DNA from: Acidobacteriota bacterium
GTDB lineage: Bacteria; Acidobacteriota; UBA6911; RPQK01; JAJDTT01
Assembly: GCA_965217775.1 (NCBI GenBank)
Contig: CBDCJH010000002.1
Coordinates: 2,720,001-2,784,000, forward strand
Length of the DNA stretch: 64,000 nt
Direction: 5' to 3'
The stretch's first letter is position 1, and the number at the start of each line of letters is the position of its first letter. Of the stretch, positions 31,549 to 56,749 are shown one piece after another. The translations under genes and the position numbers were made by a program. A model generated the notes under the pieces. It was not told the DNA's origin and ran no database searches. It saw nothing but the letters and a program-made list of their open reading frames with translations.

Positions 31549-32567
31549 AGTCAGGAGGGGTTGAATCGGACTCTCCTCGTAGCGGAAACCGGCCGAGGCG
31601 GACTGTGCAACGGACTACCGGTTGCCGCTCGGATGCCTCGACTCGGCGCAGAGCGTACGTCGGCGCCACCCCATTGGCAAGGTAGGAGGGAGGACATTCC
31701 TGTCCCCCGGAGGGGCGATTTCCAATCCCGACCGTCCCTCAGTCAACAACCATCAAACATTAACGGTTTCAGTCATTTTCCGGGTTCTTCGCCGAATCGG
31801 AAAAGTGTATGTCGATCCGGGGCATGCGACTGCCAAGGGCCTGCGCTCCTGGGCAGCGGCGCACCGGTGGCACAAGATCGCTCCGTCAAGGTCGCGATCG
31901 ACGGTTACCGCGCCTTGCAGGCGAAAGGTCATTTGTGACTCGATTCGGAAGGCGTAAAGGGGGGCTCGTGCCGATCCAGGAATGTGAAAAGGACAAGCCG
32001 GGTGGATTCACAAAAGGCAGTCCCGTCGATTCACCAAGAGGCTTTCCCCGATCTTTTTGCCTTTCATGCAGTTACGCCCATATCCCCAGATCCGCGGTGC
32101 CGATCGGGGGAGATCGCAGGTGGACGGGAGCGCCCCCCCTTTTTGCCTCCCGGATCGGCACGGCGGTGTTGCGCCACTTACATTTGCGCAACACCCCCTG
32201 GGAGGGTCGCTCCCGTCCCAAATATCCCTGCGGGAAGGCCCCTACGAAGAATACTGAAGGACTGTTGTGGCCATCCAAGGCGTCCGTTCCCCCAAGTGGT
32301 GCAACATGATCTATGTAGGACCACAGGCTACAAGTGCCACTGTGGTACGCTTGAAGGGTGAAGATTCTCCGCGTCTGCCAGAGCGACACCGGCAAGCTCC
32401 CTGAGATCCTGGTCGGGTGCTCCATCGTGTCACGCCCCGGCGGGGGGACTCTTGGACCGCCACCGTCCTCAAAGTCATCCAGTGGGGGGAGGATGCCGTC
32501 CTGGTCCGCTATCCGGGCAAAGGTTAGACTGGAGGAAGATAGATAACCTGAAGGACAGGAGAATAGC

Positions 32568-32798
32568 ATGAGCGAAGGAGTAACCATTGCGTCAACGATC
32601 GCGGGGACTTTGGCGAGTATGGGTGTGATGCTCTTGCTGATGAACAAGAGTCTGGATTCCTTCAAGAAGCAGGTCAGTGAACGATTGAGCCAATTCGATG
32701 ATCGGCTCCGCACCGTGGAAACAGGAATGGCGCGGATCGAAGGTGCCCTGTTCCATGGGGATGCTGCCCACCGGGAGGTTAAGGGATCGTCCCGGTGA
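32568..32798 (+). CDS. Small hypothetical protein (TM helix plus coiled coil)
   Basis: AGGAG RBS; DDRLRTVETGMARIEG. Confidence 0.55.
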   Translation: MSEGVTIASTIAGTLASMGVMLLLMNKSLDSFKKQVSERLSQFDDRLRTVETGMARIEGALFHGDAAHREVKGSSR

Positions 32799-33267
32799 TC
32801 GTCGTGATCACCATTGGGAGAGAGCTTGCTTCATGGGCAACTATTTCAACTTCGCAGAGTCTGCGCGCCACACTGGCACGGACTGGCCGCGAAACTATCT
32901 CTAAAGAATCGGGAGGGCTCCCCCGCCCTTTTAGTTTGCGCCGGCAGTGAGCCGGAACATCACCAGCGCGAGATATCCGCCCGACAAGTCCATCGTGCTC
33001 CAGTTGAAACTGGAACTCGGGCAATGGAAATCCCAGTAGCCGGGACTGGCCCCCGAGGGCCCGGTCTTCGACCCGGTCCCCGTGGGCGGCACTGGAGGCC
33101 CGCTTCGGCAAGGAAGTTCTCGAGGAAACCTCCATCGGCACGAACTTCTCACTCAAGGAGAGTCTCCTGAAGAACGGACCCCTGGCGGGGATTCGGGTCC
33201 TGGGTCCGAGAAGGGACCTGCTGCCAAGCCTGCTCCGGCAGGTTCGGGGGATTGCGCAGGAGCGTAG

Positions 33268-33576
33268 ATGAAGGAACCCAAGAAGGTCTTCCGGCCTCTG
33301 ACGGTTCAACAGTTCCGCGAATTGGTCGAGGCGGTGGACAACCCCTACCTGCAAGCCATGGTTGCGGTTATCGGCGGGACGGGGATTCGGAAAGGTGAAA
33401 CCTTGTCACTCACCTGGAAACGCGTGGACCTGAGTCGTCGGCTGCTGTGGGTGGAATTCACCAAGGACGACGAGGGAGATTCCGCAGTTCCCATGCGCTT
33501 GCCTGCATACGGGAGGCACAGGCGAACGAAGACACACAAACAAACCAGGCAACGGGTAGGAATCAGGGAGCAATGA
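33268..33576 (+). pseudogene. Tyrosine integrase fragment
   Basis: KEPKKVFRPLTVQQF...TGIRKGETLSLTWKRVDL..TKDD; matches the 51729-52562 integrase. Confidence 0.8.
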
Positions 33577-33620
33577 TTCAAGCGGAGAATTAGGATAACC
33601 TGTTGAAAAGAAAGGACCAA

Positions 33621-33654
33621 TCCCGTAGCTCAGTTGGACAGAGCAACGGATTTC
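33621..33654 (+). pseudogene. tRNA 5' half (tRNA-Arg-like) forming the element end; degenerate second copy on the minus strand at ~51590-51622
   Basis: CCCGTAGCTCAGTTGGACAGAGCAACGGATTTC has a D arm and 5' anticodon stem; no T arm follows. Confidence 0.75.
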
Positions 33655-33759
33655 CAATCGCCGCTCCCCTTCGGCGACAAGAGAGTCCCCGCTCCTGACG
33701 AGTGCTATGATTGGGGCCGTCTCGGACTGAACAATTCTCTTGGCTTCTTTCCGAATCCC

Positions 33760-34608
33760 ATGAAACTGACCCGCAGAAAAGTCCTCAAGGCCCTCGGAGT
33801 TGGTCTGGGAACCGGCTTCGTCGGACTGAGTGGAACTTGGCTGTATGCGACGAGAGTCGAAACCAAACGCCTGCGTCTCGAGCGCGTCCAGGTGCCCCTC
33901 CCAAGCTTGCCAAGCTCACTGGACGGCCTGCGGATCGTCCTGCTCAGCGACTTCCACCTCTACCCCCACACCCAGATCGAACTCATCGACGCCGCCGTAG
34001 AGATGGCCAACGAGTGCCGGCCCGATCTGGCCCTGCTGGGCGGAGACTACGTGCTCTCCACCGCCGAATCCATCTACGAGCTGGCGCCGGCCCTGGGCCG
34101 CCTGGACGCCCAGTACGGCGTCTTCGCCGTGCTGGGCAACCACGACCACTGGAAAAACTCGGATGCGGTGATCGACGGACTGACTCGCTCCGGCATTCAA
34201 GTCTTCATGAACGAAGGATTGACCCTGTCGGTCGGCCGCCAACCACTCTATCTGGCCGGCGTGGATGACGGATGGGTCCGTCGCCACGACCTGGAAAAGG
34301 CCCTGGCGAATCGCAACGGTGAGGACCCGACCCTGCTCCTGATGCACGAACCGGACTTCGCCGACGACTTCCTGGCCGACGGCCGGGTCCTGCTTCAGCT
34401 TTCGGGCCACAGCCACGGAGGACAGGTCCGCTTCCCCTTCATCGGCTCGCCCTTCCTGCCCCCGTACGGGCGCAAGTACGACCAGGGCCTGTACCGGGTC
34501 GGCCAGGGGTGGCTCTACACCAACGTAGGGATCGGGGTGACGGCCCCTCTGCGTCTGAACTGCCCCCCGGAGGTCACCGAGATCACGCTGGTAGCCCAAA
34601 CCGCCTGA
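33760..34608 (+). CDS. Metallophosphoesterase (YkuE/YaeI-like)
   Basis: SDFH, GGDY, LGNHD, MHEPD, SGHSHGGQ. Confidence 0.92.
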   Translation: MKLTRRKVLKALGVGLGTGFVGLSGTWLYATRVETKRLRLERVQVPLPSLPSSLDGLRIVLLSDFHLYPHTQIELIDAAVEMANECRPDLALLGGDYVLSTAESIYELAPALGRLDAQYGVFAVLGNHDHWKNSDAVIDGLTRSGIQVFMNEGLTLSVGRQPLYLAGVDDGWVRRHDLEKALANRNGEDPTLLLMHEPDFADDFLADGRVLLQLSGHSHGGQVRFPFIGSPFLPPYGRKYDQGLYRVGQGWLYTNVGIGVTAPLRLNCPPEVTEITLVAQTA

Positions 34609-34665
34609 TGCCCCGGCACTCGTGCTATCGTTGCCGCTGACGACACCTTCCGCGGAGGAACGGCA

Positions 34666-34890
34666 ATGGCAGAGCAGATTACTGTATCCGTCGATTCCGA
34701 TGTCGCCAGTGTCTACCGTTCGGCCTCAGACGAAAAGCGTCGCAAACTGGATCTGCTGGTCAACTTGCGTTTGCGTGATGCGACAGAGTCCAGGAAGTCA
34801 CTCAGTGACATCATTTCGGAAGTCAGTCGTAACGCCCAGCGGCGGGGACTGACTCGGGAGATATTGCAATCCATCCTGGACGGTGGATGA
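34666..34890 (+). CDS. Small putative antitoxin
   Basis: GGAGG RBS; C-terminal AQRRGLTREILQSIL; overlaps the PIN remnant. Confidence 0.55.
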   Translation: MAEQITVSVDSDVASVYRSASDEKRRKLDLLVNLRLRDATESRKSLSDIISEVSRNAQRRGLTREILQSILDGG

Positions 34891-34975
34891 CGCGCTACGT
34901 CTTCAAATACAACGTTATGTCAGCGCGTTACTCTTTAGCGATTCTGCGTCCGGGTGGGAGTTCACGGCCATCAAA
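34887..34975 (+). pseudogene. PIN toxin N-terminal remnant
   Basis: MTRYVF..N plus VSALLFSDS across a frameshift. Confidence 0.4.
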
Positions 34976-35212
34976 TCCGGGTTCGCTATCCCTAAGCCGG
35001 CGTCGCCGGAACCAAAATTTCTTCGCCGGAGCGGTGGCGTTCCAGTTCCCGGACCTTCAATTGGCCGCGTCTTGCTCCGCCTTGGATCGAAGAGGGCGCC
35101 CACAAGGGGCGCCCCTACGGAAAATTCTTCGTCCATTTGCACAAGATTTTGGATGTAAGGAACTATGAAATCTCATGCCGTTGCCGTCGCCTCCTCAGCT
35201 ACCTGAACCATC

Positions 35213-36709
35213 ATGAGCCCACTCGACATCGCGATCCTGGTCGTCTACCTGGCGTTTGTCGGCGGCTTGGCCTTCCACTTCTCCCGGCGTCAGAAATCGG
35301 CGGAGGACTACTTCCTGGCCGGTCGCAACCTGCCCGGTTGGGTCGTGGGCTTCTCCATCATGGGGACGATCGTGAGCAGCGCCACCTTCGTGGGCCATCC
35401 CGGCAATGTCTTCTTCAGCGACATGTGGGTCTTCGCCTATCACCTGGCCCTGCCGGTGGTGGTCCTTCTGACCGTGGGGCGGTTCGTGGTCTTCTACCGC
35501 CGCACGCTTCGAATGAGCCCTTACGAGTACCTGGGAACTCGATTCGGTTATCCCGCCCAGGCTTATGCTTCGGCTTCCTTCATCCTGAGCCGGGTCCTGG
35601 ACATGAGCCTGACCGTCTACTTCCTGGGGCTGGCCCTGGCCTTCGTCACTGGCTGGGACGTGTGGTGGGTGATCCTGGTGGTGGGCCTCCTGACCGTGGC
35701 CTATACCCTGGCGGGCGGCATCCGGGGGGTCGTCTGGACCGATTTCCTGCAGGGAATCCTGCTGGTGGGCGGAGGCCTGCTCTGCTCGGCCCTGATCCTG
35801 GGCCGCGGGGACGCGGGCCAGATCCTCACCACCGCCTGGGAGGGGGGCAAGTTCACCCTGGGAAGCTGGGAACCCAGCCTGATCGAGGACAATTTCTGGC
35901 TCCTGTTCGTGGGAGGGATCTTCCACTTCCTGCAGTCATTCGGGACCGACCAGAACATGGTGCAGAGGTACCTGCTGGCCCGCAGCGACCGGGAGGCCCG
36001 CCGCAGCGCCATAACCGGCATCCTCTCCTGCATCCCGATCTGGCTCCTGTTCATGTTCCTGGGAGGCCTGCTCTGGGCCTTCTACCAAGCCGACCCCTCG
36101 GCCCTTCCCCCGGAGGTCGGACAGGTCAAGGACAACATCATTCCCCACTTCATCATGACCGAGTTGCCGCCGGGGCTTCTGGGACTGCTCCTGGCCGGGC
36201 TGCTGGCGGCGGCCATGTCCAGCATGGACTCGGATCTCAACAGCGTTGCGGCAGTGGTGCTGCAGAATTTCTATCGCCGGATGAAACCTGGAGCCGCCCA
36301 GCGCAGCCAGCTCATGGTGGGCCGGGCCGGCGTCGTGGTCGGCGGGCTGCTGTCCATTTTCCTGGCGCAGCAGTGGATCGGAATCGAGTCCCTGGTGAAG
36401 TACTCGCTCGGTCTGGCTCTGGTCGTCTCGGGAGGAAAACTGGGTCTCTTCGCCCTCGGATGGCTCTTTCCGAAGGCCACGTCCAAGGGGGCCTACACCG
36501 GTCTCGCCGCCTGCGTGATGTTCACCCTCTGGGCCGCACTGACCCGGGTGGAGATGCCCAACAGCCAGAGCCCGTTGCTGGATCTGGGCCCCTACAACTT
36601 TCCCTGGATGCCCATGACCATCGGGATGATCGGGCATGTCCTGGTGCTGGCGGTGGGCTATGCCGCCAGCCGGTGGAAGAACAATAGGGAACAGGCTTCT
36701 TCGTCATGA
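35213..36709 (+). CDS. Sodium:solute symporter
   Basis: DYFLAGR, SPYEYL, GGIRGVVWTD, DQNMVQRYL, AAAMSSMDS. Confidence 0.92.
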   Translation: MSPLDIAILVVYLAFVGGLAFHFSRRQKSAEDYFLAGRNLPGWVVGFSIMGTIVSSATFVGHPGNVFFSDMWVFAYHLALPVVVLLTVGRFVVFYRRTLRMSPYEYLGTRFGYPAQAYASASFILSRVLDMSLTVYFLGLALAFVTGWDVWWVILVVGLLTVAYTLAGGIRGVVWTDFLQGILLVGGGLLCSALILGRGDAGQILTTAWEGGKFTLGSWEPSLIEDNFWLLFVGGIFHFLQSFGTDQNMVQRYLLARSDREARRSAITGILSCIPIWLLFMFLGGLLWAFYQADPSALPPEVGQVKDNIIPHFIMTELPPGLLGLLLAGLLAAAMSSMDSDLNSVAAVVLQNFYRRMKPGAAQRSQLMVGRAGVVVGGLLSIFLAQQWIGIESLVKYSLGLALVVSGGKLGLFALGWLFPKATSKGAYTGLAACVMFTLWAALTRVEMPNSQSPLLDLGPYNFPWMPMTIGMIGHVLVLAVGYAASRWKNNREQASSS

Positions 36710-36813
36710 AGGTTCCCGATGAACTGTTGCTCGAAATCCTTAGCGACTTTGTGATTCCGGATGTTGTCCTCCAAATCACCTAGAGGTCGAATGGTAGACT
36801 TCGGCTCAGTAGC

Positions 36814-37623
36814 ATGATCAATCTGCACGAACGGTTGTCGGAATTTTCTTACGGATATGGAGTTACTCGTGAGGTGGAAAACCTACTCGCCAACGCGGGA
36901 TGTCATGTCACGCCGTTTCTCCCAAGTCTGGTGCACGAAGCGAAGCTTGGATTTGATGTAAGCTTTAAGGATCCTGGCTTTATTCTCATGCTGCAGTTTA
37001 AGTTGGGTCAAGAACTTCAGCGGTTTCGCCGCTCGAATCACTCACAAAGCATCCCACCGTTGACGAAGCCATTTTGGCGCTTCGAAATAGATACTTCGGC
37101 GCGCCAGTTTAATAACTTGGTGGAGTTCGAAAACGCCGATGCGCATGTCTATTACGTCGCGCCGCGTTTCTCTGACTGGGTAGCCTATGAACAGGCTTTC
37201 CAAACTAGTCGTGTGCTTCATGAATCACTGATACTTAGGCCATCTGAGATTTTGCGCGGCATTCAAGCGCAGATCGAAAACACAGATGTCCATCGGATTG
37301 TGTACGATGAGACAAACTGCTATTTCTGCTCTGAGTTGTTCAAACTTCGCAGTGTGAAACAGCGTGAGATTTTGGAAAATATAGTCGAGCGAACATCGGA
37401 CGAAACCCTAGAAGAGAGTATCCAACGTCTGTTTGATTGCCTACAAACTGATTCTCGCGGTGAGATCCCCCATGCGCAACAGTGGGAGTATCGCAAACAA
37501 CCCTATGATCGTTCCAGACCAGATGTCGGCGCCAGGGCAGCGATAGTCGGAATGGAGGTCTGGATCCGCGGTGCTCAGTTGGTCTTTGTCACTCAGTCCG
37601 CATCTTGGAGGATAAACCAATGA
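36814..37623 (+). CDS. Hypothetical protein, possible PD-(D/E)XK nuclease fold
   Basis: Lower GC than flanks; E..LGFDVSF......LQFK pattern. Confidence 0.45.
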   Translation: MINLHERLSEFSYGYGVTREVENLLANAGCHVTPFLPSLVHEAKLGFDVSFKDPGFILMLQFKLGQELQRFRRSNHSQSIPPLTKPFWRFEIDTSARQFNNLVEFENADAHVYYVAPRFSDWVAYEQAFQTSRVLHESLILRPSEILRGIQAQIENTDVHRIVYDETNCYFCSELFKLRSVKQREILENIVERTSDETLEESIQRLFDCLQTDSRGEIPHAQQWEYRKQPYDRSRPDVGARAAIVGMEVWIRGAQLVFVTQSASWRINQ

Positions 37624-37829
37624 ATCCCAGTCAAGTGGACCGCCTCAGTCCGACCAAAAATGAGGCGTTCAGCCTTTCCGCATGAGCGGTTTTCGCGACC
37701 GGGCCCCAAATACTCGAGTTAGGCGCTAGAAGGGGACAGTCACTTTCTCGCTCGTTCTTTGTCGACATGGGGGGCGTCTTTCCGGAACTGGGCAGGGGTC
37801 GAGAGGATTCCGGGAGCTTTCCTCACTCC

Positions 37830-38153
37830 TCACATCTCATCCTGCCTTTGCGGTATACGTGCGACCCAGTCTGCCCCAGCAAATGTGACCGCATAAATGA
37901 GCACCTCGCAGGCTTTGTCGTCGACCGTAAAGGCTACGACGGCTTTTCTCCCGGCAGGGATCGCCCGCAAACCGGGTGCTATTTCGTTACGGATGGATCC
38001 CGTGTGAGGAGTTTGTGCCAAGCCCGCGATGGTCCATTCAATCTCGGTCAGCGTCCGATCAGCCGCCACAGACCCCGCGTAATCGAGGACCCATTGGACG
38101 ATGTCTCGAAGATCACGTGCCACCAGCGGATGGAAACGGATGCGGTACGTCAC
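37830..38153 (-). CDS. ParE/RelE family toxin
   Basis: YRIRFHPLVARDLRDI...PHTGSIRNEIAPGLR. Confidence 0.85.
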   Translation of the reverse strand: MTYRIRFHPLVARDLRDIVQWVLDYAGSVAADRTLTEIEWTIAGLAQTPHTGSIRNEIAPGLRAIPAGRKAVVAFTVDDKACEVLIYAVTFAGADWVARIPQRQDEM

Positions 38154-38419
38154 GTCTTCGGATCAGTCCCAATAGTGGCGCGAGCGGTTGAGAAAGCGTG
38201 ATCCTGGTCCACGAACTCGGAACGCGGTGTCTGCATGCGCATGCGGATTTCTTCGGCCAGAGCCGAAAGCGCTACGTTTCGCTCGGTCTCGTCCTGCATC
38301 ATCCGTTCGATGGCAGCCGCCACCGCAGCGCTCCGAGTAGCAAACACGCCTTGGCCCACCTTCTCCGAAAGGTACCGATGGTGGCGATCCGTAAAGCTGA
38401 GGGTCGTTTTGACGGTCAT
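38150..38419 (-). CDS. ParD-like antitoxin
   Basis: MTVKTTLSFTDRHH...GVFATRSAAVAAAIE; overlaps the toxin start. Confidence 0.8.
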   Translation of the reverse strand: MTVKTTLSFTDRHHRYLSEKVGQGVFATRSAAVAAAIERMMQDETERNVALSALAEEIRMRMQTPRSEFVDQDHAFSTARATIGTDPKT

Positions 38420-38565
38420 CCGCACCTCCTTGGTATGACTGAGTCATATACCACTTCGGCGGATCCGGCTCAAGAGGAGGAGAATTCTTGGTCGGGGCGC
38501 CCTTTGTGGGGGCCCTCTTCGGTCCAAAACGGACTGTGCCGGGCGGCCCGAAGGCGAGATAATGA

Positions 38566-41150: not shown

Positions 41151-41168
41151 GGGACGGACGGCGCGGAT

Positions 41169-43242: not shown

Positions 43243-43475
43243 GGTTTTCAGGTCTCCGGTCGTTTGCGCCGCCGGTATTCTTGACGGACTACGGCCCTCG
43301 GTGTCCAGGTACTCTCTGATCTCAATCATCACTTCATGGTGCCTGATATGTTACCATCGACAAGTAGCCTGGAGTCAAGATTCTTGCCTGGTCGGAAGAG
43401 GTAGACTGTCCCTTTTTCGTTCCCAAAGACCCTGTCGGCAAAGATGTGATCCAATGCCTCCACAGTAGGCCGTCG

Positions 43476-44891
43476 ATGTCAGGTGCAGCAGGATCGTTGA
43501 GCAGACCACTTGTTGCGAGCGTTCTCGCACTTACCCTGGCTTGTGCCGCGTGCGGTGAACCGGCTGAGGTTCTTGTGGGCAAGGAGCTTCTTGTCCTCGA
43601 AGGGGCCACTCTGATTGACGGAACCGGTGCCGGACCGCGCGAGGACAGCGTCATCGTGGTGGACGGCGACCGAATCATCAGGGTCGGAAGCGCGGGTGAT
43701 TTCCATTTCCCCGACTCGGCACGGCAAAGAGACGTTTCGGGCCACTTCGTGCTGCCGGGATTCATCGACATGCATGTCCATGTTCACCCCAAGGCTCGGA
43801 TCGAGACCGTGGAGGCGTTGCTTGAGTTCGGAGTGACCACGATACGCAGCCCGGGCGCCGCGCAAAGCGCCGGAGTCGAGCTCCGGGATCAGATCGAGGC
43901 GGGCCGGGTTCGGGGGCCGCGGATGATGACCGGCGCCGCCTTCATCGACGGTTCTCCGAGCCGATTCGACTGGACGGTGCCCGTGGCGACACCGGATGAG
44001 ATCCGGGACGTGGTTCGACAACAGGCTGCGGCGGGTGCCGACATGATCAAGCTGTACTGGGACGTGACCCCGGAGCTGACGGCCGCTGCGATTGAAGAGG
44101 CCCACAAGCTCGGTCTGAGGGTCGCCGGCCACCTCCGGGCGACGAGCTGGACCCAGGCGGCAAGACTGGGAATCGATGCCCTGGTCCACAGCGGTGCAGA
44201 GGGACCGACCTGGGAGCTGGTCCCCGAAAGGCACCGGGCCCAACTGAGGGCGCTGCCCTACCCGGAGTTCTACGCCCGTTGGCTCGAGTTGGTGGAGCTT
44301 GACGGCGATCTGATGAGTTCCTTGATTACTGCCCTCGTTGACAACAACGTGACGGTCGACCCGACTCTGGTCGTGATGGAGAGCCTCTACTTCGGTGACG
44401 ACCCGAAGGTTCTCGAGCGGCTCGAGCCGCAGCGGGCTCCGTCCTCGGTGGTCTCGCTTTGGGGTTCGGACTGGCGGCAGCGAAACCCGTTTGTTTTCAC
44501 CAACCCCATGGGAATCGCTCGGGACTTCACGTCCGGCAAGCCCGTATTCCCCGTCGCACTCCAGATCGTGCGGAGGCTTCATGAGGGGGGAGTGAGGCTG
44601 ACCGCAGGGAGCGACCTGGGAATGCCCTGGATCACGCCGGGCGTGAGCCTGCATCGGGAGCTAGAGCTCCTGGTCCAGGCCGGCATCGACGAGGCTGACG
44701 TGATCGTCATGGCGACCCGAAACGGCGCCGAGGGCCTGGGTCTGGAGGATCAGCTCGGAACCGTCGAAGCAGGGAAACTGGCCGACCTGGTCGTGCTCTC
44801 GGCGGATCCACTGTTGGACATCCGCAACACCCGCTCGGTGGCCGCCGTCTACAAGGCTGGCGAACTCCAGTATCAAGCCACGCCACTTTGA
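43476..44891 (+). CDS. Amidohydrolase family lipoprotein (copy 1)
   Basis: LPGFIDMHVH, GVTTIR, GSD, GKLADLVVL. Confidence 0.9.
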   Translation: MSGAAGSLSRPLVASVLALTLACAACGEPAEVLVGKELLVLEGATLIDGTGAGPREDSVIVVDGDRIIRVGSAGDFHFPDSARQRDVSGHFVLPGFIDMHVHVHPKARIETVEALLEFGVTTIRSPGAAQSAGVELRDQIEAGRVRGPRMMTGAAFIDGSPSRFDWTVPVATPDEIRDVVRQQAAAGADMIKLYWDVTPELTAAAIEEAHKLGLRVAGHLRATSWTQAARLGIDALVHSGAEGPTWELVPERHRAQLRALPYPEFYARWLELVELDGDLMSSLITALVDNNVTVDPTLVVMESLYFGDDPKVLERLEPQRAPSSVVSLWGSDWRQRNPFVFTNPMGIARDFTSGKPVFPVALQIVRRLHEGGVRLTAGSDLGMPWITPGVSLHRELELLVQAGIDEADVIVMATRNGAEGLGLEDQLGTVEAGKLADLVVLSADPLLDIRNTRSVAAVYKAGELQYQATPL

Positions 44892-44926
44892 AACGGGCGC
44901 TGATGGTGATGCCCGGTAGAAAAAGG

Positions 44927-45046
44927 GTAGGAGCGGCGGTTTCCTAACCGCCGGCTTCCGGAGTGTCCGGGAACGAACGCGTATCGTGGGCGACGGGTTA
45001 TCGCCCTTCCTTTTTCTTAGAGGGGGACAGGAATGTCCCCCCTCCT
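44927..45046. repeat. REP cluster between convergent amidohydrolase and sialidase-like genes
   Basis: GTAGGAGCGGCGGTTTCCTAACCGCC and GGGGGACAGGAATGTCCCCCCTCCTAC. Confidence 0.8.
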
Positions 45047-46019
45047 ACCGGACGGCCAGCTTCGCAATCGGGATTCGCAGGAAGAACAAACCCGGTCCTC
45101 CCTCCTGATCTTTGTCGATGTCGTAAAAGACCACGCCGATTGTTTTATCGTCGAGTTGCACCGTTCGGGGACAGGCCCGGCCGTTGATCGCCCGGCCCGG
45201 GTTGTAGTACTCAAACACGCCATCCCATGTCTGCCCGTCGTCGTATGAAAGACGATAGCGGATGCGCTCCCCGCCAAAGCCGGGCCCGAGAATCTCCGAG
45301 GCCAGCAGCCAGCCGTTTTTCAGACCGACCATTTCGTGCCGCCAGCCCTGCGAGCTGATGTCCGGAAAGCCTTCGATGGTCTTCCACGTCTTGCCGTTGT
45401 CCGTTGATCGGATGCCGGCGCCGCTGACGAACGTGCCTCTCGGAGTCTGCACAATCGGGATCAACCCATGCATACGGCCATCGCCGAACGGTGTTGCTTT
45501 GGAAGTGGCCGGATCAAACACGAACGTCCGGTCTATCAACGACACGAGCCATTGCTCTGACTTCAGTTCGGTAATGGGGTGCCGGATGACGGATCTGACT
45601 TCGGGATCACGCGGGAATGGCTGCGGGTCGCTCCACGATACTCCGTCGTCATTCGACAGTGAGTACAAGACAGACCGTGGTTCTTTCTGAGTGACCGGCG
45701 TATCCCAGCGGTTCCAGCAATGCAACAGGCGGCCGTCGCTCAGTGTCGTCAGCGAGCCCGGGTAATACGTCTTATCGACGGTATGGACGAACGGCACAGG
45801 TTCGGACCATTTCATTCCTCCGTCCGACGATCGAGTGATGCGCAGGTCCACGTGATTCACCCGCCCGTACGTCACAACGATCGTCCCCGAGCGGGTGACA
45901 CAGGCCGCCGGGTGAATGTGCCCGTCGACCGGGACAGCAACCCGGACCGGTTTCAGTTGATGGTCGCTCGCGACGACCGTTGACACAGCGAATAAAGACA
46001 GCACGGCGAGTCGGTTCAT
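45045..46019 (-). CDS. Sialidase-family (BNR/Asp-box) secreted protein (copy 1)
   Basis: SSDGGMKW, SNDDGVSW, STDNGKTW, SYDDGQTW Asp boxes. Confidence 0.8.
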   Translation of the reverse strand: MNRLAVLSLFAVSTVVASDHQLKPVRVAVPVDGHIHPAACVTRSGTIVVTYGRVNHVDLRITRSSDGGMKWSEPVPFVHTVDKTYYPGSLTTLSDGRLLHCWNRWDTPVTQKEPRSVLYSLSNDDGVSWSDPQPFPRDPEVRSVIRHPITELKSEQWLVSLIDRTFVFDPATSKATPFGDGRMHGLIPIVQTPRGTFVSGAGIRSTDNGKTWKTIEGFPDISSQGWRHEMVGLKNGWLLASEILGPGFGGERIRYRLSYDDGQTWDGVFEYYNPGRAINGRACPRTVQLDDKTIGVVFYDIDKDQEGGPGLFFLRIPIAKLAVR

Positions 46020-47795: not shown

Positions 47796-47804
47796 GGACG
47801 CCTC

Positions 47805-47836: not shown

Positions 47837-47885
47837 GGGTCATAAAGCCCGGCAGCGATGCCGCCGGGGGGGTGTAACACACTCG

Positions 47886-47914
47886 AATGTACGCGTGGCT
47901 CGACACCAAGTCAA
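47886..47914 (-). promoter_or_regulatory. Sigma70-like promoter
   Basis: TTGACT-N17-TACATT. Confidence 0.7.
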
Positions 47915-48072
47915 TCTGACCGCAGCTGGACTTCCCCGATTTTTTTCACGGTCAGGAGAATAGGGGAAGCAAGTTTCGACGAGGGTCGGATCGAGGCGGC
48001 CCGGTGCCCGTGTTCCGGCCAAACAAGAGCTGCTTGATCCGATCCGCAGAGCTCAACGACGCCCGTGAGAAA

Positions 48073-48906: not shown

Positions 48907-49451
48907 TGTCCGAACTCACAAAATGATTTGCCGCGCCCTGCCCGGGAGCCGAGTCGTCACAGAGGACGAAGGACCGGCGTCCCTCTGAGAGACGGGACCA
49001 AGAACAGGATCAGCCCGGACCGTCTTCTTTGAATCCGGAACCGAAACCGGGGCTGCGCCCGCCGGACAAGGCACTCTTGGGAGCATACCGAAAGTATATG
49101 ACCGAGGAGCAACGCGTCTCCGCCGGGATGCGTGGAATGGGTCCAGCCGCGCATTCGAATTCCGTAGGGGCGCCCCTTGTGGGTGCCCTCTTCGGCCCGA
49201 ACCAACACAGACCCGGTCGGCCGCCGGGACATGGCGTGGGAGTCACGGGGTGGCCTCTGGGCGATCTCGGTTGCCTGTACTGGGATGGCAACCACAAGGG
49301 TTGCCCCTACCAACGGGAAGCCATCCCACCGGACGGGGGAAGTAGACTGCCCCTCTCTCGTTCCCACCGAAGTTGTCGATTGCCGCCTTTGCGGAGTCGT
49401 CTGGCTCTGGGGCGTGTTTCCGAAATGCACACATTGTGTGATTATTGACTC

Positions 49452-49739
49452 ATGAGCGCCAGTTTCGACTGGAGCACGGAGAAGAATCAAAGACTCATCG
49501 AGCAGCGAGGAATCTCAGTCGAGAGCGCCGTCTCCGCCATAGAGCAAGGCGGCTTGTTGGATGTACTGGAGCACCCGAACCAGGATCGCTACCCGGGACA
49601 GTTGATCTACGTCGTGGAATCCGACGAGTACATTTTTCTTGTACCTTTTGTGACGCAGGCCGACGGCACTCGTTTTCTGAAGACGATTGTTCCCAGCCGA
49701 AAGGCGACGAAAGCTTACCGGAGGAGGCAGCCATCGTGA
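49452..49739 (+). CDS. BrnT-like toxin (copy 2)
   Basis: Close paralog of 42317-42604. Confidence 0.85.
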   Translation: MSASFDWSTEKNQRLIEQRGISVESAVSAIEQGGLLDVLEHPNQDRYPGQLIYVVESDEYIFLVPFVTQADGTRFLKTIVPSRKATKAYRRRQPS

Positions 49740-50011
49740 ACGACAAATTGAGCACCGAAGAGCGCGACATTCTCGACCGATTCGAGCGGGGTGACTTGCG
49801 CTCCGCTCCTGGTGCTGAACGCGAAGTTGAGGTGGCCCGTCAGGCGGCTCGCAATACGTTCAACAAATCCAAGCGAGTGAATCTGCGGGTAACCGAGCGC
49901 GACTTCAAACTCGCTCACTCGCGGGCCAGGGAAGAAGGAATTCCCTATCAAACACTGCTGTCCAGTGTTATCCACAAATACCTGGCCGGCCGCCTGACCG
50001 AAAAGAGGTAG
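49736..50011 (+). CDS. CopG/BrnA-like antitoxin (copy 2)
   Basis: Close paralog of 42601-42903. Confidence 0.85.
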   Translation: MNDKLSTEERDILDRFERGDLRSAPGAEREVEVARQAARNTFNKSKRVNLRVTERDFKLAHSRAREEGIPYQTLLSSVIHKYLAGRLTEKR

Positions 50012-50084
50012 TCGGACATCACGATGTGCGCGAGAAATGGTGACGTTCGATGGGTCCGTCGGCTCCGTACTCCGTAGTCCGTCG

Positions 50085-51497
50085 ATGTCAGGAGCAGCAG
50101 GATTGCTGAGCAGACCTTCTATTGCGATCGCTCTCGCACTTACGCTGGCTTGTGCCGCGTGCGGTGAACCAGCCGAGGTGCTTGTGGGCGAGCGGCTTCT
50201 TGTCCTGGAAGGAGCCACTCTGATTGACGGCACCGGCACCGAACCGCGCGAGGACAGTGCCATCGTGGTGGACGGCGACCGAATCCTCAGGGTCGGCAAC
50301 ACCGGTGAATTCCATTTCCCCGACACGGCACGACGAAGAGAGGTTTCGGGCCACTTCGTGCTTCCAGGATTCATCGACATGCATGTCCATGTTCACCCCG
50401 AGGCTCGGATCGAGACCGTGGAGGCGTTGCTCGAGTTCGGAGTGACCACGATACGCAGCCCGGGCGCCGCTCAAAGCGCCGGCGTCGAGCTCCGGGATCA
50501 GATCGAGGCGGGCCAGGTTCGCGGTCCGCGGATGATTAGCGGCGCCGCTTTCATCAACGGGTCTCCTCGATTCGATTGGACGGTAGCCGTGGAGACGCCG
50601 GATGAGATCCGGGACGTGGTTCGACAACAGGCTGCGGCGGGCGCAGACATGATCAAGCTGTACTGGGACGTGACCCCGGAGCTGATGGCCGCTGCCATCG
50701 AAGAGGCCCACAGGCTGGGTCTGACGGTCGCCGGCCACCTTCGGGCAACGAGCTGGACCCAGGCGGCGCGAATGGGAATCGACGCCTTGCTCCACAGCGG
50801 CGCGGAAGGGCCGACCTGGGAGCTGGTCCCCGAAAGGTACCGGGCCCTACTGCGGGCACTACCCTATCGGGAGTTCTACGCCCGTTGGATCGAGTTGGTG
50901 GAGCTGGACGGCGAACTGATGAGCTCCTTGATCGCCGCTCTCGTTGCCAACAACGTGACGGTCGACCCGACTCTGGTCGCGATGGAAAGCCTCCACTTCG
51001 GTGACGACCCTAAGGTTCTCGAACGGCTCGAGCCTCAGCGGGCTCCGCCCGCGGTCGTCTCGCTTTGGGGTCCGGATTGGCAGGAGCGAAACCCGTTCGT
51101 CTTCACCAACCCGATGGGAGTCGTGCGGAACCTCACGTCCGGCAAGGACGTATTCCCCGTCGCACTCCAGATCGTGCGGAGGCTTCACGAGGGGGGAGTG
51201 AGGCTGACTGCAGGAACCGACGTGGGAACGCCCTGGATCACGCCGGGCGTGAGCCTGCATCGGGAGCTGGAGCTTCTGGTTCAGGCCGGCATCGACGAGG
51301 CTGACGTGATCGTCACGGCGACCCGAAACGGCGCCGAGGGCCTGGGTCTGGAGGACAGGCTCGGAACCGTCGAAGCCGGGAACCTGGCCGACCTGGTCGT
51401 ACTCTCGGCGGATCCGCTGTCGGACATCCGCAACACCCGTTCGGTGACCTCCGTTTACAAGGCCGGCGAACTCGTGTATCCGGCCGCGCCACCTTGA
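50085..51497 (+). CDS. Amidohydrolase family lipoprotein (copy 2)
   Basis: Close paralog of 43476-44891. Confidence 0.9.
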   Translation: MSGAAGLLSRPSIAIALALTLACAACGEPAEVLVGERLLVLEGATLIDGTGTEPREDSAIVVDGDRILRVGNTGEFHFPDTARRREVSGHFVLPGFIDMHVHVHPEARIETVEALLEFGVTTIRSPGAAQSAGVELRDQIEAGQVRGPRMISGAAFINGSPRFDWTVAVETPDEIRDVVRQQAAAGADMIKLYWDVTPELMAAAIEEAHRLGLTVAGHLRATSWTQAARMGIDALLHSGAEGPTWELVPERYRALLRALPYREFYARWIELVELDGELMSSLIAALVANNVTVDPTLVAMESLHFGDDPKVLERLEPQRAPPAVVSLWGPDWQERNPFVFTNPMGVVRNLTSGKDVFPVALQIVRRLHEGGVRLTAGTDVGTPWITPGVSLHRELELLVQAGIDEADVIVTATRNGAEGLGLEDRLGTVEAGNLADLVVLSADPLSDIRNTRSVTSVYKAGELVYPAAPP

Positions 51498-51728
51498 AAC
51501 GGGCGCTTATGGTGACACCCGGTAGAAAAAGGGCAAGCGGCGGTTTCCAACCGCCGAACTCCGGTGGAGCATTGAGGAATGGGCGACTGGAAGTCCGTTG
51601 CTCCGTCCAACTGAGATAAGGTATAGATCCTTTATTTTCAACAGTTTATCCCATTTCTTAGGTCTAATCACTTTCCCTTTTTTGCTGCCCGTTGCCGGTT
51701 TGTTGCCTGTTGCGTTTGTGAGTCTTCG

Positions 51729-52562
51729 TTAGCCTGTGCCTCCCGAATGCTCTGGAGCGCATGCGAACTGACGTACCCCGCATACCGCATCGTCGTGCTG
51801 ATCGCCGAGTGCCCCATCAACTTCTGCACCGTTCTCACGTCCACCCCCTAGCATCAGCCAATGGCAGCAGAGGAATCGTCTCAGATCGGGAAAACCGACT
51901 TTCAACCCCACCTTCTCGGCAGCGCGACGCAACAGTTTGTCGGGAGTCACCCATCTCGTTCCCGTCCGGCTGTTGACGAAGACGTGTGGCGTGTTCAGGT
52001 AGCGAACCAGCCCGACCAGGTCGCGGAACTGCTGAACCGTTAGAGGCTGGAAGGCCTTCTTCGGCTCCTTCAGTTTGGGAAACCGCACCAGCGGGTGCGT
52101 ATCGATCTCCCCACACTCCAGCGCGTAGCAAAACAGCTTGCTGATGGCGGCGATGGCGCGGTTCACCGTGGCCAGTTTGACCTGTTTCTTTCTCTGGGCG
52201 ACGTAGCGGTGCAGGTCTTTGCGTTGGAACTCCTTCAGGGAAATGTTGCCCAGCACGGCGTTGAGCCTCTTGAACGAGAGCGAATAGCGGCGCAAGGAGC
52301 GCAATCGAGGTTTGCAATACTCCTCGATAAATCGCTCGTAGAAACTCCGGACCGTCCAGATCGTGCGGTTTCCTCCGGCGAATTCCCGCTTGAGCTGCTT
52401 CCAGGTGCCGTCCAGGATGCTGGACTCCACCCGAGTTTGGAGCGCCTGTGCGCTCCGGTAGTTGGGGGCGTACTTTCTGAGCCGACGGGATCCGTTCGGC
52501 CAGTACTTGCTGACGACGTATCGTCTCCTCCCCTGGCGATCCTTCACCTTATAGATGCCCAT
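51729..52562 (-). pseudogene. Phage-type tyrosine integrase with internal deletion and frameshift
   Basis: ATVNRAIAAISKLF, FPDLRR; GVDVRTVQKLMGHSAISTTMRYA in a shifted frame; the TGxR segment is missing. Confidence 0.85.
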
Positions 52563-52955
52563 GCATCTCCTCCTTTCTGGATCCGGGTTCTTCGCCGTGG
52601 GGCGAATCGTACCAAGGCTCCAGAGAGAAACGGCGAATCTCTATTCTTTCCTGCGGGAAGTCCGTTAATTTCGGCTAACGGACAGACGAGGACGCCGGGC
52701 CCGGACCTTCACCACGAGGCCAGGCGAGACGCGCCCGATCCCCAAGCAGAAGTCTGCCCAAGCGGGCGCGCCCCACCAGGGGAGCGGGACCCGGTATCCT
52801 TCTTGAAAAGAAAACCCTTTGCAAAATCAGTTGGTGGACCTGCAGTCCGGGCGACGGTCGGGCCGCCGGCATCCTCCAGATCCGGTGCCGGGACCCCGGC
52901 GGCTGGCTTTTTTCTCGAGGAGTCGGCTTCGTAGTCTCCGAGGGAAGGAGATGCC

Positions 52956-54080
52956 ATGAGAATGAGAAACGGCGGCTGCGGCCTCCGAGGAGTTAGGGAA
53001 GCGGGTCTGGTGGCGCTTTTGTTGGTCTCGGCAACGGCTGTGAATGGACAATGGCTGTCCGTTTCGGATTTCGAGCGCTTCCAATTTTACAACGCCTGTC
53101 GCCCCATGGGACTGAGGAGTCACAGCGGCGGGTCGATCGATGCCGGCGCGGATGCCGGCACGTTGGAACATGAGGACGGACGGCCAGGAATGAATCTGGA
53201 TCCCATTGTGGACGTCGCCAAAAGCCGCTTGCGCGCAGAGCGCCTCTACTCATTGTTGGAAAGCGAGTCGAACGGGGCGGCCCTGGTGGTTTCCGTCGAT
53301 GTCAGGGCAGTTTCCCGCGACCTCGTGGCGTATGCCATCGGTCTCGAATACCACAAGCTCGTCACCGATGCCGCCAGCGGACTGGAGAAACTGACGGCCA
53401 CGTGGCGCAACAACTCGATCGTGTGCTGCGACCCCCTCGATCCCGAAAGCATCAGCGAACATCTCGCCCGCGGCCACCTCGATTTCTTCCTGGAGAAGTA
53501 CCGGCAAGTGAACGAGGAGGATTGCCGCCCGCCCTCATTGACGGCCACTGGACGGCTTTCCTGTGCTGGACAGTGGAGCGGCACGGAGTGCTGGATGGAG
53601 TTGTCCAACGTGCCCGGGTGCTACGTCTGGAGTGCTGCTCGCCTGCCGGAGCAGACTGTGACCTGGACGGGCGAGTGTGGCGGGGAACTCGCCCAAGCTC
53701 AGGGAACCCTCAAATGGGCCTGGGATCGGGGCCGGGGCGAGGAGACCGCCGAAGAGACCGGGCATCTGCGGGCCGGCAAGAAGTGGCGCGGCCAGTGGAT
53801 CAGGCGCTACGGGAACGGAACCGTCCACGAAGGGGAGGTTGTAGAGGGGAAGCGGCACGGACGGTGGGTCATTCGACGTGCGGATGGAGCCGTCGTCGAA
53901 GGCTCGTATGTGGAGGGCAAGCGGCACGGCCAGTGGGTCACTCGGCACAAGTCCGGCAAGCGAGAAGTGGTCACCTACAAACACGGCTGGCAAGGCAAAT
54001 CGACCAAGATTCCTGATGAGGACCCCAAAGAGGTCGAAGTCGATGAGAACACGCCGAGGGACGTGGATGGGGATAGGTGA
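52956..54080 (+). CDS. Exported hypothetical protein with MORN-like repeats
   Basis: Signal peptide; EGEVVEGKRHGRW / EGSYVEGKRHGQW. Confidence 0.6.
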   Translation: MRMRNGGCGLRGVREAGLVALLLVSATAVNGQWLSVSDFERFQFYNACRPMGLRSHSGGSIDAGADAGTLEHEDGRPGMNLDPIVDVAKSRLRAERLYSLLESESNGAALVVSVDVRAVSRDLVAYAIGLEYHKLVTDAASGLEKLTATWRNNSIVCCDPLDPESISEHLARGHLDFFLEKYRQVNEEDCRPPSLTATGRLSCAGQWSGTECWMELSNVPGCYVWSAARLPEQTVTWTGECGGELAQAQGTLKWAWDRGRGEETAEETGHLRAGKKWRGQWIRRYGNGTVHEGEVVEGKRHGRWVIRRADGAVVEGSYVEGKRHGQWVTRHKSGKREVVTYKHGWQGKSTKIPDEDPKEVEVDENTPRDVDGDR

Positions 54081-54194
54081 GGGGAAGAGGAAGGGAGTGG
54101 CGCGATTTTATGAAGTCCTTCTTGTCCAAGAGCTCCATCGCATTTTCGAAGAGGGCCTTGTCCGGTGCGATGGTCTCCTCCCGGAGTTCCGCCC

Positions 54195-54345
54195 CCTGTG
54201 GCTCAAGCGGCGTCTGAGGGCCGCCAGCTTGCCGGAGATTATCTCGCCGCACTCGTTCCACGTGTTGGTGGTCACGGATCAGCTCAGCCAGAACCTGCTG
54301 CTTGAGGACATCTAATACCTAGGAGCCTGCGCGGCAGAAATTAAT
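54195..54345 (+). pseudogene. XerD-like recombinase C-terminal fragment
   Basis: LKRRLRAASLPEIISPHSFHVLVVTD; similar to 57023-57100. Confidence 0.6.
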
Positions 54346-54621
54346 CTACTGCGAAAGCGTAGAATCGGTCCATATTTCCCCGATTTCTCGGCGAATAGAA
54401 CAACTATGCACCTCCAAATCGTGAAAATCTGGCCTCGATTCTCCACTTTCTCGCTACGATCATTTCTACCGCGCAGACTCCAAGCCAACCACGCTTGCCC
54501 CCGATCCACTCTGAAGTCTTTGTACAGACCGCAGAGGGAGGGGGAGGTGGGACCATGTTTGCTACAATTCGGTTAAATCATTCCGGTGAACCGATCCAAT
54601 GAAGGGGGCGAAGTTCGATCC

Positions 54622-55116
54622 GTGAAAAAGTCCTCTGTCGAGATCTATGGGTTGGCCGTCTGCTTCGTTACGCTACTTTGTTTCATCATCGCCCTGGGAG
54701 TCGGTCTCTATGACCTGCTTCAGCTCGCCTACCCCGAGTTCACCCTGAATGCTTACGAGTACGAACGGCACCGGTCCAATGACTCATTCCGCGATTCACC
54801 TCGATCTGTGTCCTACGTTCAATGGTCGACTCCACCTGTCCGTGGGACAAGCCCGGACGATGGAAAAACCTATAGGGTCACTCACAGAGGAGTTCCAACG
54901 GTGCCGCAAGGAGGGCCGGAAATTACCGAGGATGAGACCACTCGAAGGCGGAAGGAGAGCTACCGTAGCGTGCTCCGAGTCGAACGCAGACACGCCCGCC
55001 AAAGTCTGGCGTTGGTGGGCATCGTGATGTTGATCGACGTTCTGGTTTTCCTTCCGCACTGGATCTTGGCGCGGCGACCAAGGGTATCGAGATATGACGG
55101 CAGACGTGTCCCGTAG
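54622..55116 (+). CDS. Hypothetical membrane protein
   Basis: Two TM helices, EIYGLAVCF...VFLPHW. Confidence 0.55.
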   Translation: MKKSSVEIYGLAVCFVTLLCFIIALGVGLYDLLQLAYPEFTLNAYEYERHRSNDSFRDSPRSVSYVQWSTPPVRGTSPDDGKTYRVTHRGVPTVPQGGPEITEDETTRRRKESYRSVLRVERRHARQSLALVGIVMLIDVLVFLPHWILARRPRVSRYDGRRVP

Positions 55117-55690
55117 CTTGATGTTTTTGCTGTTGTTCGGCGCGACGAGCGCCTCGGTTCACAATCAGGACCGCTGGAACGTCGCGGACGAGGAGATCGT
55201 GCGCTTGGCGCCCGCAGCATTCGAGGAGGTTCCACCGGCCATTCGGAAGACACTTTCCGACCAAGGCTGCTCGATCCCTCAGACCTGGGGCAACACAGGT
55301 CCGGGCTCGATCCCTCCGCCCTACGACCGGCCTCACAACGTCGTCTCAGGCGAGTTCATGGAAGCCGGACGAACGCAGTGGGCCGCGCTCTGCTCTCGGA
55401 ATCGATCATCAGCGATTGTTGTGATTGATAAGAACGGCCGAATCCGGGCCGAATTCGCATCCGCCCCGGACAGGAGTTATTTGCAAGGTATCGGGGGCGA
55501 AAAGATCGGCTATTCGCGTGCGTTGAGCCCGGCCGGGGCTGATTACATCCTGTCAGTCTACCAGGCCTACGGAGGACCGAAGCCGCCACCGATCGAGCAT
55601 CAAGGCATCGATGATGCCTTTCTTGAAAAGGCCTCCACGGTGCACTACTTCCACGAAGGAATGTGGCTGCGGTTGACTGGTGCGGACTGA
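55094..55690 (+). CDS. Hypothetical exported protein
   Basis: Signal-like N-terminus; clean ORF. Confidence 0.55.
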   Translation: MTADVSRSLMFLLLFGATSASVHNQDRWNVADEEIVRLAPAAFEEVPPAIRKTLSDQGCSIPQTWGNTGPGSIPPPYDRPHNVVSGEFMEAGRTQWAALCSRNRSSAIVVIDKNGRIRAEFASAPDRSYLQGIGGEKIGYSRALSPAGADYILSVYQAYGGPKPPPIEHQGIDDAFLEKASTVHYFHEGMWLRLTGAD

Positions 55691-56190
55691 GCCAGCGAGA
55701 CATCCCCTTTCCCGCCCCGTTGAACTGGCCGGGCGCTCCATTCGAGATCACGACTCGCCAGGACGACTCTTGGACATCGCGTGCCTGCGAACTCTATTCT
55801 GGAGTTTGTCCCCGGGAAGGGACTGTCTCATGGCACACTCGTCGTTATGTTGAATGCCACATAACGACGAGTGGGTCAGGGTTCGAGCGTTGCCCTGCGG
55901 TGCTGGCCAAAGATAGACACAGCGCAAACACCATGTGTTCCGAACCTGGGGAACAAGAGAAAATGGGAAGAGTGAGTCAGCTTTCGAGAGCCGATGCTAC
56001 TGCCTGTTTGTTGCCTGTTCAGGATGTCGAACGTTGGGAGTCAACCACTTGACCGATTCGGCCACGAATCCGGTAAATGAATGAAAACGTTAACCTTCGG
56101 TAGTTATTGACTGTGGGGCAGTCGGGACTGGAAGTCGCCCCTCGTAGCCAAGGCACCGACCCATAGTCCGAAGCTGACGGCGTCGCTGCT

Positions 56191-56748: not shown

Positions 56749-56749
56749 G

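Follow-up and report, generated by a model that had tools for sequence, protein, structure and literature searches.

Decayed integrative elements inside REP hairpins of an Acidobacteriota genome: a probable switch of a lambda-type tyrosine integrase from a tRNA-Arg gene to a multicopy target

Results

Two related elements and their ends

The window analysed here is a 64-kb stretch (C2:2720001–2784000) of an Acidobacteriota genome (the source genome, G000; 6.43 Mb, 62% G+C) and contains two decayed copies, E1 and E2, of a family of integrative elements, both lying in repetitive extragenic palindromes (REPs). E1 (31717–33659, plus strand, 1,943 bp) sits between two copies of GATTTCCAATC: its left junction core (31717–31727, plus) is directly preceded by a REP left half, GGAGGGGC, and its right junction core (33649–33659, plus) is followed by a REP right half, GCCGCTCC. 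E2 (51585–56136, minus strand, 4,552 bp) sits between two copies of GACTTCCAGTC in the loop of a hairpin of the family termed here REP-A. An earlier note on this DNA had described both elements as bounded by 11-bp direct repeats, and each pair is indeed unique on its window strand, GATTTCCAATC occurring on the plus strand only at the two E1 cores and GACTTCCAGTC on the minus strand only at 51585–51595 and 56126–56136. ARAGORN found no tRNA gene in the whole 64-kb window.

The integrase-side ends read CCCGTAGCTCAGTTGGACAGAGCAACG plus core in E1 and, on the minus strand, CCTTATCTCAGTTGGACGGAGCAACG plus core in E2. The former includes a vestigial tRNA-Arg(TCT) 5′ half (33622–33648, plus), running from the 3′ part of the acceptor stem to the anticodon stem, and 35/38 positions are identical to the tRNA-Arg(TCT) gene of the source genome (C2:3954257–3954331), which bears out the tRNA-Arg-like 5′ half noticed earlier; a diverged version is present in E2 (51596–51621, minus). 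Since the stem-loop of that tRNA gene reads ACG-GACTTCTAATC-CGT, the 11-bp repeat takes in the anticodon loop and, on each side of it, two pairs of the stem.

The opposite, left end is conserved over approximately 150 bp and has eight copies in the source genome, including the third copy already spotted in the window; E1 keeps about 90 bp of it and E2 a stretch at 55985–56125 (minus). The third copy is a solo left end (58961–59096, minus) with no integrase after it, whose junction GACTTTCCTTC adjoins the left half of a GGAGGGGGG-type REP. Repeats of the form ACAGGCAAC/CAGGCA are found at 56000–56020 (as GAACAGGCAACAAACAGGCAG, in the E2 left end), at 58961–58981 and at 51685–51712 (minus; as CAACAGGCAACAAACCGGCAACGGGCAG, the right-arm repeats of E2, within the 3′ coding end of its integrase). 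They are kept in 24/25 real aligned left ends (one further row of the alignment is spurious) and also in right ends, the E1 left end being the exception; arm-like repeats near the element ends had been reported earlier. Direct repeats of the CAGGCAAC type are likewise kept in left and right ends of all classes, tRNA-targeting copies included, and are putative arm-type sites of attP.

Window integrases and an intact homologue

Both window integrases are dead, and E1 and E2 are dead relics. The E1 remnant (33268–33560, plus) retains only residues 188–256 and 351–377 of 385 aa (tblastn, query P0001). The E2 pseudogene (51671–52625, minus) is without residues 211–260, approximately, including catalytic R228 and K253; in addition, the H of its HxxR box is replaced by P, and the reading frame shifts near residue 327.

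An intact homologue, which the earlier note had proposed to seek, lies elsewhere in the genome: P0001 (385 aa), encoded (L002:8053–9210) in a full element, E3 (C2:798855–821293, 22.4 kb), which alone among the copies of the source genome has its integrase intact. P0001 matches Pfam Phage_integrase (PF00589) at 93.8 bits (cut-off 27.1) and falls far under the cut-offs of the Xer and integron-integrase families (68 bits versus 265 for the latter). R228, K253, R316, H339 and Y348, aligned with XerD, are invariant in 23 integrase sequences. An AlphaFold model (mean predicted local distance difference test score, 82.6) places N-terminal strands at 27–31, 37–44 and 51–56 and a helix at 59–75, followed by core-binding and catalytic domains, and aligns with full-length lambda Int structures (1z1b, 1z1g and 5j0n) over 342–356 columns. 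The integron integrase (PDB 2a3v) is among both the fold and the sequence matches of P0001, and Tn1549 Int among the fold matches. The predicted N-terminal arm-binding fold, together with conserved repeats in both arms, points to a heterobivalent lambda-type mechanism and to a three-domain tyrosine integrase that would bind arm sites.

The REP target

The REP-A unit reads GGAGGGGC-GAYTTCYARTC-GCCCAYTCC, and its two halves flank E1, E2, E3 and a fourth left end, L4. Approximately 115 REP-A copies (GGGGCGAYTTCYARTCGCCC-type, a 20-mer family) and 116 copies of a second type, REP-B (GGCGGTT(A)GGAAACCGCC), were counted in the source genome; chance can be excluded, because a 20-mer family with some 115 copies is found in a genome of 6.4 Mb. 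REPs frequently form doublets, with a REP-B ≤90 nt away in 18/59 REP-A. The core pattern GAYTTYYARTC is represented 65 times by GATTTCCAGTC, 41 times by GATTTCCAATC and 21 times by GACTTCCAGTC, and the T-A to C-G difference between the E1 and E2 cores, which had been taken for a compensatory change, is ordinary REP variation. Three RAYT-like (REP-associated tyrosine transposase-like) Y1-transposase genes (PF01797) were matched, one with a REP-A 63 bp downstream and another with a REP-A about 1 kb off. The target of E1 and E2 is a true REP: short, palindromic, multicopy and able to form a hairpin. Among the left ends of the source genome, four adjoin REP-A left halves (E1, E2, E3 and L4) and two adjoin other REP variants (L5 and L8).

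Mimicry of an anticodon arm, as proposed in the earlier note, is apparent in the output of a tRNA finder. ARAGORN miscalls REP doublets and arrays of the source genome as tRNA genes of odd length (76–95 nt), giving false tRNA-Gly(tcc) calls at C2:117489 and 4661454 and false tRNA-Ser(gga) calls at 1906447, 2649412 and 4307977; in the tRNA-Gly(tcc) miscalls the REP-A hairpin is taken as the anticodon arm and its partner hairpin as the T arm. These miscalls are an independent measure of the resemblance. Automatic annotation of these genomes may, incidentally, hold false tRNAs of this origin. Some REP-A variants have the loop TTTCTAA, which a single change separates from the tRNA loop CTTCTAA; they exist as two unoccupied copies and, occupied, in locus L036, and are a plausible stepping stone from tRNA to REP.

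Within the window, two REPs without an element (GGCGGTTTCCTAACCGCC and GGGGGACAGGAATGTCCCCCC, 44935–45042) lie in a paralogous intergenic region; the earlier description of 44892–45045 as having REPs and no element was correct, and the REPs are other ones. The window has tandem paralogous pairs (43446–46019, 50037–56781 and 59133–60128) in which an amidohydrolase gene (PF01979) faces a BNR/sialidase-like gene (PF13088). The pairs are 89–93% identical in DNA, and an element end lies in the intergenic REPs of 2/3 BNR-side copies.

Empty and occupied sites

The E2 site is empty in the congener G006: the flanks are colinear, they overlap by exactly 11 bp, and the position is held by an intact REP, GGGCGACTGGAAATCGCCCC. 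That removal of an element restores an intact REP hairpin, as had been claimed for both copies, is thus proven for E2 by a relative. For E1 the claim holds only approximately. Its restored hairpin has one mismatch and, in G006, a REP-A lies at the left flank, whereas the right flank is a second, inverted REP some 110 bp further on; the sequence nonetheless identifies the E1 site as a REP site. The same E1 insertion is carried by G007 (98% identical), and in G005 the very REP that houses E1 holds a different, intact 2.7-kb element lineage with the core GATTTCTAGTC, from which it follows that this REP has been used recurrently. The E1 site was probably remodelled later.

A counterpart at the ancestral kind of site is provided by the congener G003, in which the same family (integrase 85% identical) lies inside a real tRNA-Arg(TCT) gene as an element of about 47 kb. 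Its attR is an intact tRNA-Arg(TCT), 47 bp past the integrase gene, and in its attL, approximately 47 kb off, native upstream DNA leads to the displaced 5′ half and GACTTCTAATC, and the conserved left end comes next. The tRNA-Arg(TCT) gene of the source genome is unoccupied and has the same outer flanks as in G003, making it the orthologous empty site.

Census of junctions and recent mobility

A search for related loci returned 54, from which two false rows (L050 and L051) were removed for the integrase count; with E3 counted in, the integrase gene is uninterrupted at 34/55 loci. Right junctions could be aligned in 46 rows. Two are intact tRNA-Arg(TCT) genes and 14 are REP-A; seven read TTTCCTA or TTTCCAA followed by CCCCC, seven read CTAACAG, and eight read CTGTTAG, which is the CTAACAG REP in the opposite loop orientation. 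The remainder comprise two CTTTCCTG, one CTTTTAG, one CTTTCAG, two diverged and two unreadable junctions. Copies of the ends occur in REPs or in tRNA-Arg, not at random places, in line with the earlier note.

Left ends are more numerous in two congeners (30 and 26 per genome) than in the source genome. On one congener chromosome, 22/22 paired elements lie between two REP halves and have a block common to both ends, which has its centre at the REP loop and measures 7, 10, 11, 14 or 15 bp according to class, the REP half-stems lying outside it. Its length is that of the stretch of identity between attP and REP, rather than that of a fixed-length target duplication. In 4/22 the block is exactly 7 bp (attL ...GGGGGT-TTTCCTA-TCCcga, attR ...acgGA-TTTCCTA-CCCCCAC), and strand exchange would be placed in these 7 nt because they align with anticodon-loop positions 32–38. 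The CTGTTAG and CTAACAG elements of one congener chromosome (L015–L049) share a REP family and carry different versions of the tRNA half. In REP-type copies generally the tRNA half has lost the acceptor 5′ end and in many its D-stem pairs are broken, as expected of a vestige.

Element sizes, with each integrase paired to the nearest left end on the same strand, range from 2.7 to 25.1 kb (25 elements). Two copies of 2,796 bp at distant loci (L024 and L049) are 100% identical, the identity ending at the REP edges, and mobility must accordingly have been recent.

Direction of the change

An order-wide search recovered a homologue at E ≤ 1e-40 in 35/76 genomes. Of the more distant loci (integrase identity 32–85%), 22/23 have an intact tRNA gene, for Arg, Leu, Thr or Asp, no more than about 135 bp from the 3′ end of the integrase gene, compared with 0/3 REP-type control loci. 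The layout seen in E1 and E2, in which the element supplies the 5′ half co-directionally with the integrase gene, is shared by only 5/22 tRNA-adjacent relatives, but these five include the two closest outgroups (71% identity; tRNA-Arg TCT and TCG), a pair that also has the arm repeats and the TTGAA..AAAGGAT spacer.

In the integrase tree, 33 REP-type sequences form a single clade (SH-aLRT, Shimodaira–Hasegawa-like approximate likelihood ratio test, 95) nested among tRNA-type sequences; the G003 tRNA-Arg copy is sister to this clade, and the 71% pair of tRNA-Arg copies branches off next. One change of state suffices. Since outgroups adjoin tRNAs and the REP-type integrases form one nested clade, the switch ran from tRNA to REP, in agreement with the retargeting that had been proposed. 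The tree leaves out L146, L148 and L156, which have internal stop codons, L158, which is shorter than 250 aa, L042, which duplicates the L135 locus, and the false rows L050 and L051. The unpublished genome G016 underlies none of the conclusions drawn here. It replaces an earlier tree which held those two rows and, having no outgroups, was unable to polarise the switch.

Cargo, a conserved module and stray ends

E2 carries three cargo open reading frames (ORFs) of 374, 176 and 198 aa (52956–55690, plus); none of the three had a Pfam match, and the 374-aa ORF, the one run through PADLOC, had no match there. E3 encodes a type II restriction enzyme (PADLOC REase_II, 464 bits) beside an EcoRI-like adenine methylase, an IS1595-family transposase and DinB_2, DUF6615, DUF6988 and DUF4145 proteins, and it holds a nested, truncated second left end at C2:800594. 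No common cargo theme emerges from the contents of E2 and E3. Also within E2, at 54317–54490, is a repeat of about 170 bp resembling a miniature inverted-repeat transposable element, with copies of 96–99% identity in the source genome (among them C2:2335682, 1252860 and 1878843) and in G001, G002, G004, G005, G006 and G007; in public contigs its summed word depth exceeds that of the neighbouring sequence by a factor of hundreds.

A GC-rich module of approximately 370 nt, delimited by BLAST coverage (31880–32245, plus, in the window), is conserved in most elements, some 400 nt inward from the left end. Other copies, in both orientations, include L024:1850–2294, L001:3301–3696 and C2:2413992–2414364, and the module exists outside elements too: G023 has 11 matches, all in the module region, yet no left end. 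Its RNAalifold consensus is multi-stemmed (85 pairs, 11 with compensatory changes), so predicted folding makes it probably structured; Rfam gave no match in 31000–60000 at E up to 0.1. A role as an RNA guide for target choice was considered and dropped, because the two sequence types of the module do not follow the core classes.

Several stray ends were recorded. At C2:~828200–828250 an orphan tRNA-Arg-like 5′ half runs into GACTGTCAGTC and then a REP right half, and there is no integrase upstream of it. It resembles the leftover of a further core class, CTGTCAG, whose core is also present at a left end in G001 (L081). Locus L003 comprises two left ends facing each other 11.7 kb apart (C2:4125331, plus, and 4137033, minus); BLAST detected neither a right end nor an integrase in the interval, and two elements may have recombined to give this arrangement. 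At L112 (G005, C1:~410800) a 24-nt tRNA half is joined directly to a core and left end, as in an attP. It was not used as evidence of tandem integration, there being no integrase upstream.

Discussion

A switch from tRNA to REP hairpins

E1 and E2 are very probably dead copies of a family of integrative elements that is moved by a lambda-type tyrosine integrase and that switched from tRNA-Arg(TCT) to REP hairpins. What the data show is the anatomy of the copies, sites of both kinds in the empty and in the occupied state, the direction of the switch and the recent mobility; that the integrase itself catalyses integration into REPs, and the exact positions of cleavage, we infer. The ancestor would have recombined at the anticodon loop of a tRNA-Arg(TCT) gene, an attP that carries the tRNA 5′ half ensuring that integration rebuilds the gene. 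In one Acidobacteriota genus an integrase lineage would then have moved to REP hairpins, which offer the duplex architecture of an anticodon arm: a centre of 7–8 nt between two G-rich half-sites in inverted orientation, most of which end in GA/TC. Strand exchange would take place in 7 bp matching both the anticodon loop and the REP loop.

On this scheme the attP, formed by joining the right end to the left end, would begin with arm repeats and a spacer; the tRNA 5′ half, with (A/G)CGGA at its end, would lead into the overlap of 7 bp, and TCCCGACTG..., some 110 bp and further arm repeats would follow. The half-sites of attB would be ACGGA/TCCGT in the tRNA gene and GGCGA/TCGCC, GGGGA/TCCCC or GGGGT/CCCCC in REPs. 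The overlap of each sub-lineage would have changed to fit the loop of its own REP family (TTTCCAA/CTTCCAG, TTTCCTA, CTAACAG, CTGTTAG and others), so that sub-lineages would differ mainly in the overlap, identity of which would be required for integration, while the now useless tRNA half would be retained as a decaying part of the core/arm region. The elements, bearing from 0 to about 22 kb of cargo, would behave like transposons because REPs are multicopy. The suggestion in the earlier note that REPs serve as cargo-loading sites fits the element sizes of 2.7–25 kb, a compatibility that falls short of proof.

Several observations weigh against this account. The targeted REP half-sites differ from one another (GGCGA, GGGGA and GGGGT), so that the protein may read either a loose half-site word or the hairpin shape. 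Resolution of the tree within the REP clade is poor, and members of the CTGTTAG and CTAACAG classes are intermingled; core changes must then be frequent and not simply bound to lineage, and the interleaving orientations imply frequent flips of the core. In G004, only seven unoccupied exact GGGGGACTGTTAGTCCCCC sites (CTGTTAG/CTAACAG loop) were found as against 16 occupied ones, a scarcity that is surprising for an abundant, pre-existing target. The history of at least one copy is more complex, the E1 flanks corresponding in G006 to two separate REPs. Neither recombination nor excision was seen, contigs of four public runs over 51000–56700 being uninformative: these contigs (Logan) are short and broken at repeats, and joints or loose ends at the junctions could stem from any REP or related element. 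Lastly, no excisionase or directionality factor was found, nor was a second conserved ORF in the eight minimal elements (2.7 kb).

Alternative explanations

A distinctly unlikely alternative keeps the same mechanics and has the integrase read structure: a REP hairpin or cruciform once extruded, or a single strand in folded form, in the manner of integron integrases on attC. Specificity would be set by the 7-bp attP overlap alone, and the anticodon arm and any G-rich REP hairpin with a loop of 7–8 nt would be equivalent. The stems of the target REPs do differ (GGGGCGA, GGGGGGA and GGAGTGGGGG(T)) while the hairpin geometry stays the same, elements occupy one REP family in both orientations of its loop, a tRNA finder mistakes the REP hairpin for an anticodon arm, and an integron integrase figures in both the fold and the sequence matches of P0001. 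However, the half-sites all fit (G/C)G(G/C)G(A/T/G) beside the overlap, and because they share this loose common word ordinary duplex recognition suffices; an arm-binding domain with conserved arm repeats is, moreover, typical of duplex attP/attB synapsis, and in most classes attP makes a poor hairpin (ACGGA...TCCCG). A broader proposition, to which we give a little more room and which we still regard as rather unlikely, is that the integrase selects a shape plus a 7-bp match: any palindromic hairpin with a G-rich stem and a 7–8-nt loop would be a substrate, the anticodon arm being the ancestral case, and a change of overlap would retarget the enzyme.

Other readings would deny the integrase its part, or the REPs theirs. 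If the RAYT acted on REP hairpins, or if REPs recombined by homology, the integrase and tRNA half could be passengers of an old island; three RAYT-like genes are matched in the source genome, REPs are prone to recombination and REP arrays vary among congeners. This is highly improbable, as the boundaries are always the same integrase-proximal tRNA half and left end with arm repeats, the integrase is intact at most loci and its clades track the core classes, and the junctions fall at the loop centre with identity of the attP/attB type, just as at the tRNA site. The REP halves might alternatively belong to the elements, as target duplications or terminal inverted repeats, with solitary REPs as scars. 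REP halves are found at every junction, and one core variant in G004 is more often occupied than empty, but G006, where the orthologous site is empty and an intact REP lies in DNA that is otherwise colinear, already contradicts the idea; about 115 REP-A of the source genome have no adjoining element sequence as against four that are occupied, the common block is a variable 7–15 bp of chance agreement between attP and REP and not a fixed duplication, and outside the core REPs are unlike the element ends. We accord this reading almost no credence.

Relation to known systems

Tyrosine integrases reportedly insert islands and prophages in tRNA genes at an anticodon-loop sublocation, a pattern that Williams is said to have described in 2002. 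The Islander database (PMC4383910) collects such tRNA gene (tDNA)-integrating islands, defined as bounded by a regenerated, intact tRNA gene and a displaced fragment. The present family resembles them in integrase family, three-domain build, a 7-nt anticodon-loop crossover flanked by symmetric stem, and an attP that includes part of a tRNA; the G003 copy is a textbook tDNA island, with tRNA-Arg(TCT) regenerated and a fragment displaced. It departs from them in that most copies, E1 and E2 included, lie in REP loops, with tens of targets per genome rather than one, and, unlike most of its tRNA-adjacent relatives, it carries the tRNA 5′ half co-directionally with the integrase gene. E1 and E2 fail the Islander definition because neither end holds a tRNA gene, both flanks being REP halves; they would work like tDNA islands at a surrogate site.

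REPs are reportedly targeted by the insertion sequences (ISs) IS1397/ISKpn1 and ISPpu9/10 and by the IS110-family IS621, which uses a bridge RNA; Tobes and Pareja, in 2006, and later work are said to have established this. There, as here, REP hairpins are multicopy, harmless landing sites, but those elements use DDE or DEDD/IS110-type transposases, whereas this family has a lambda-type integrase, attP arms, conservative site-specific recombination and variable cargo. The integron integrase IntI is without an arm-binding domain and recombines a folded single strand; IntI with attC offers the parallel of a tyrosine recombinase acting on many palindromic sites of varied sequence and common hairpin shape. 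Tn916/Tn1549 and CTnDOT tolerate heterologous overlaps and use loose AT-rich or short consensus sites. They too are integrase-driven and enter many chromosomal places, whereas the elements described here enter a defined family of repeats and have an identical overlap at their two ends. In REP/REPIN–RAYT systems (REPIN, REP doublet forming hairpins; PMC3116915 and PMC3337134), extragenic palindromes occur with Y1-transposase genes; the REPs considered here share with them extragenic palindromes, frequent doublets and Y1-transposase-like genes, and differ in being the target and not the mobile part. No tyrosine integrase targeting REPs turned up in a full-text literature search, supplements and subscription journals lying outside its coverage, or in passages of PMC3390384.

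Significance

Site-specific integrases are prized for being hard to retarget, and this family amounts to a natural retargeting series: ancestral tRNA-Arg sites and at least six derived REP loop classes, occupied and empty, together with the attP sequences that match them and dozens of intact enzymes closely related to one another. What accompanies each new target is a change in the 7-bp overlap, and little else that is obvious. Were shape plus a 7-bp match indeed all that the integrase selects, this lambda-type integrase would be naturally reprogrammable, and it would use REP arrays as landing pads for the assembly of cargo. The series also accounts for the orphan tRNA halves and false tRNA calls of these genomes and adds a new enzyme class to the elements that exploit REPs. 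For the family itself, it follows a single-site element that gained a multicopy site, reaching 26–30 copies per genome and minimal, IS-like forms of 2.7 kb.

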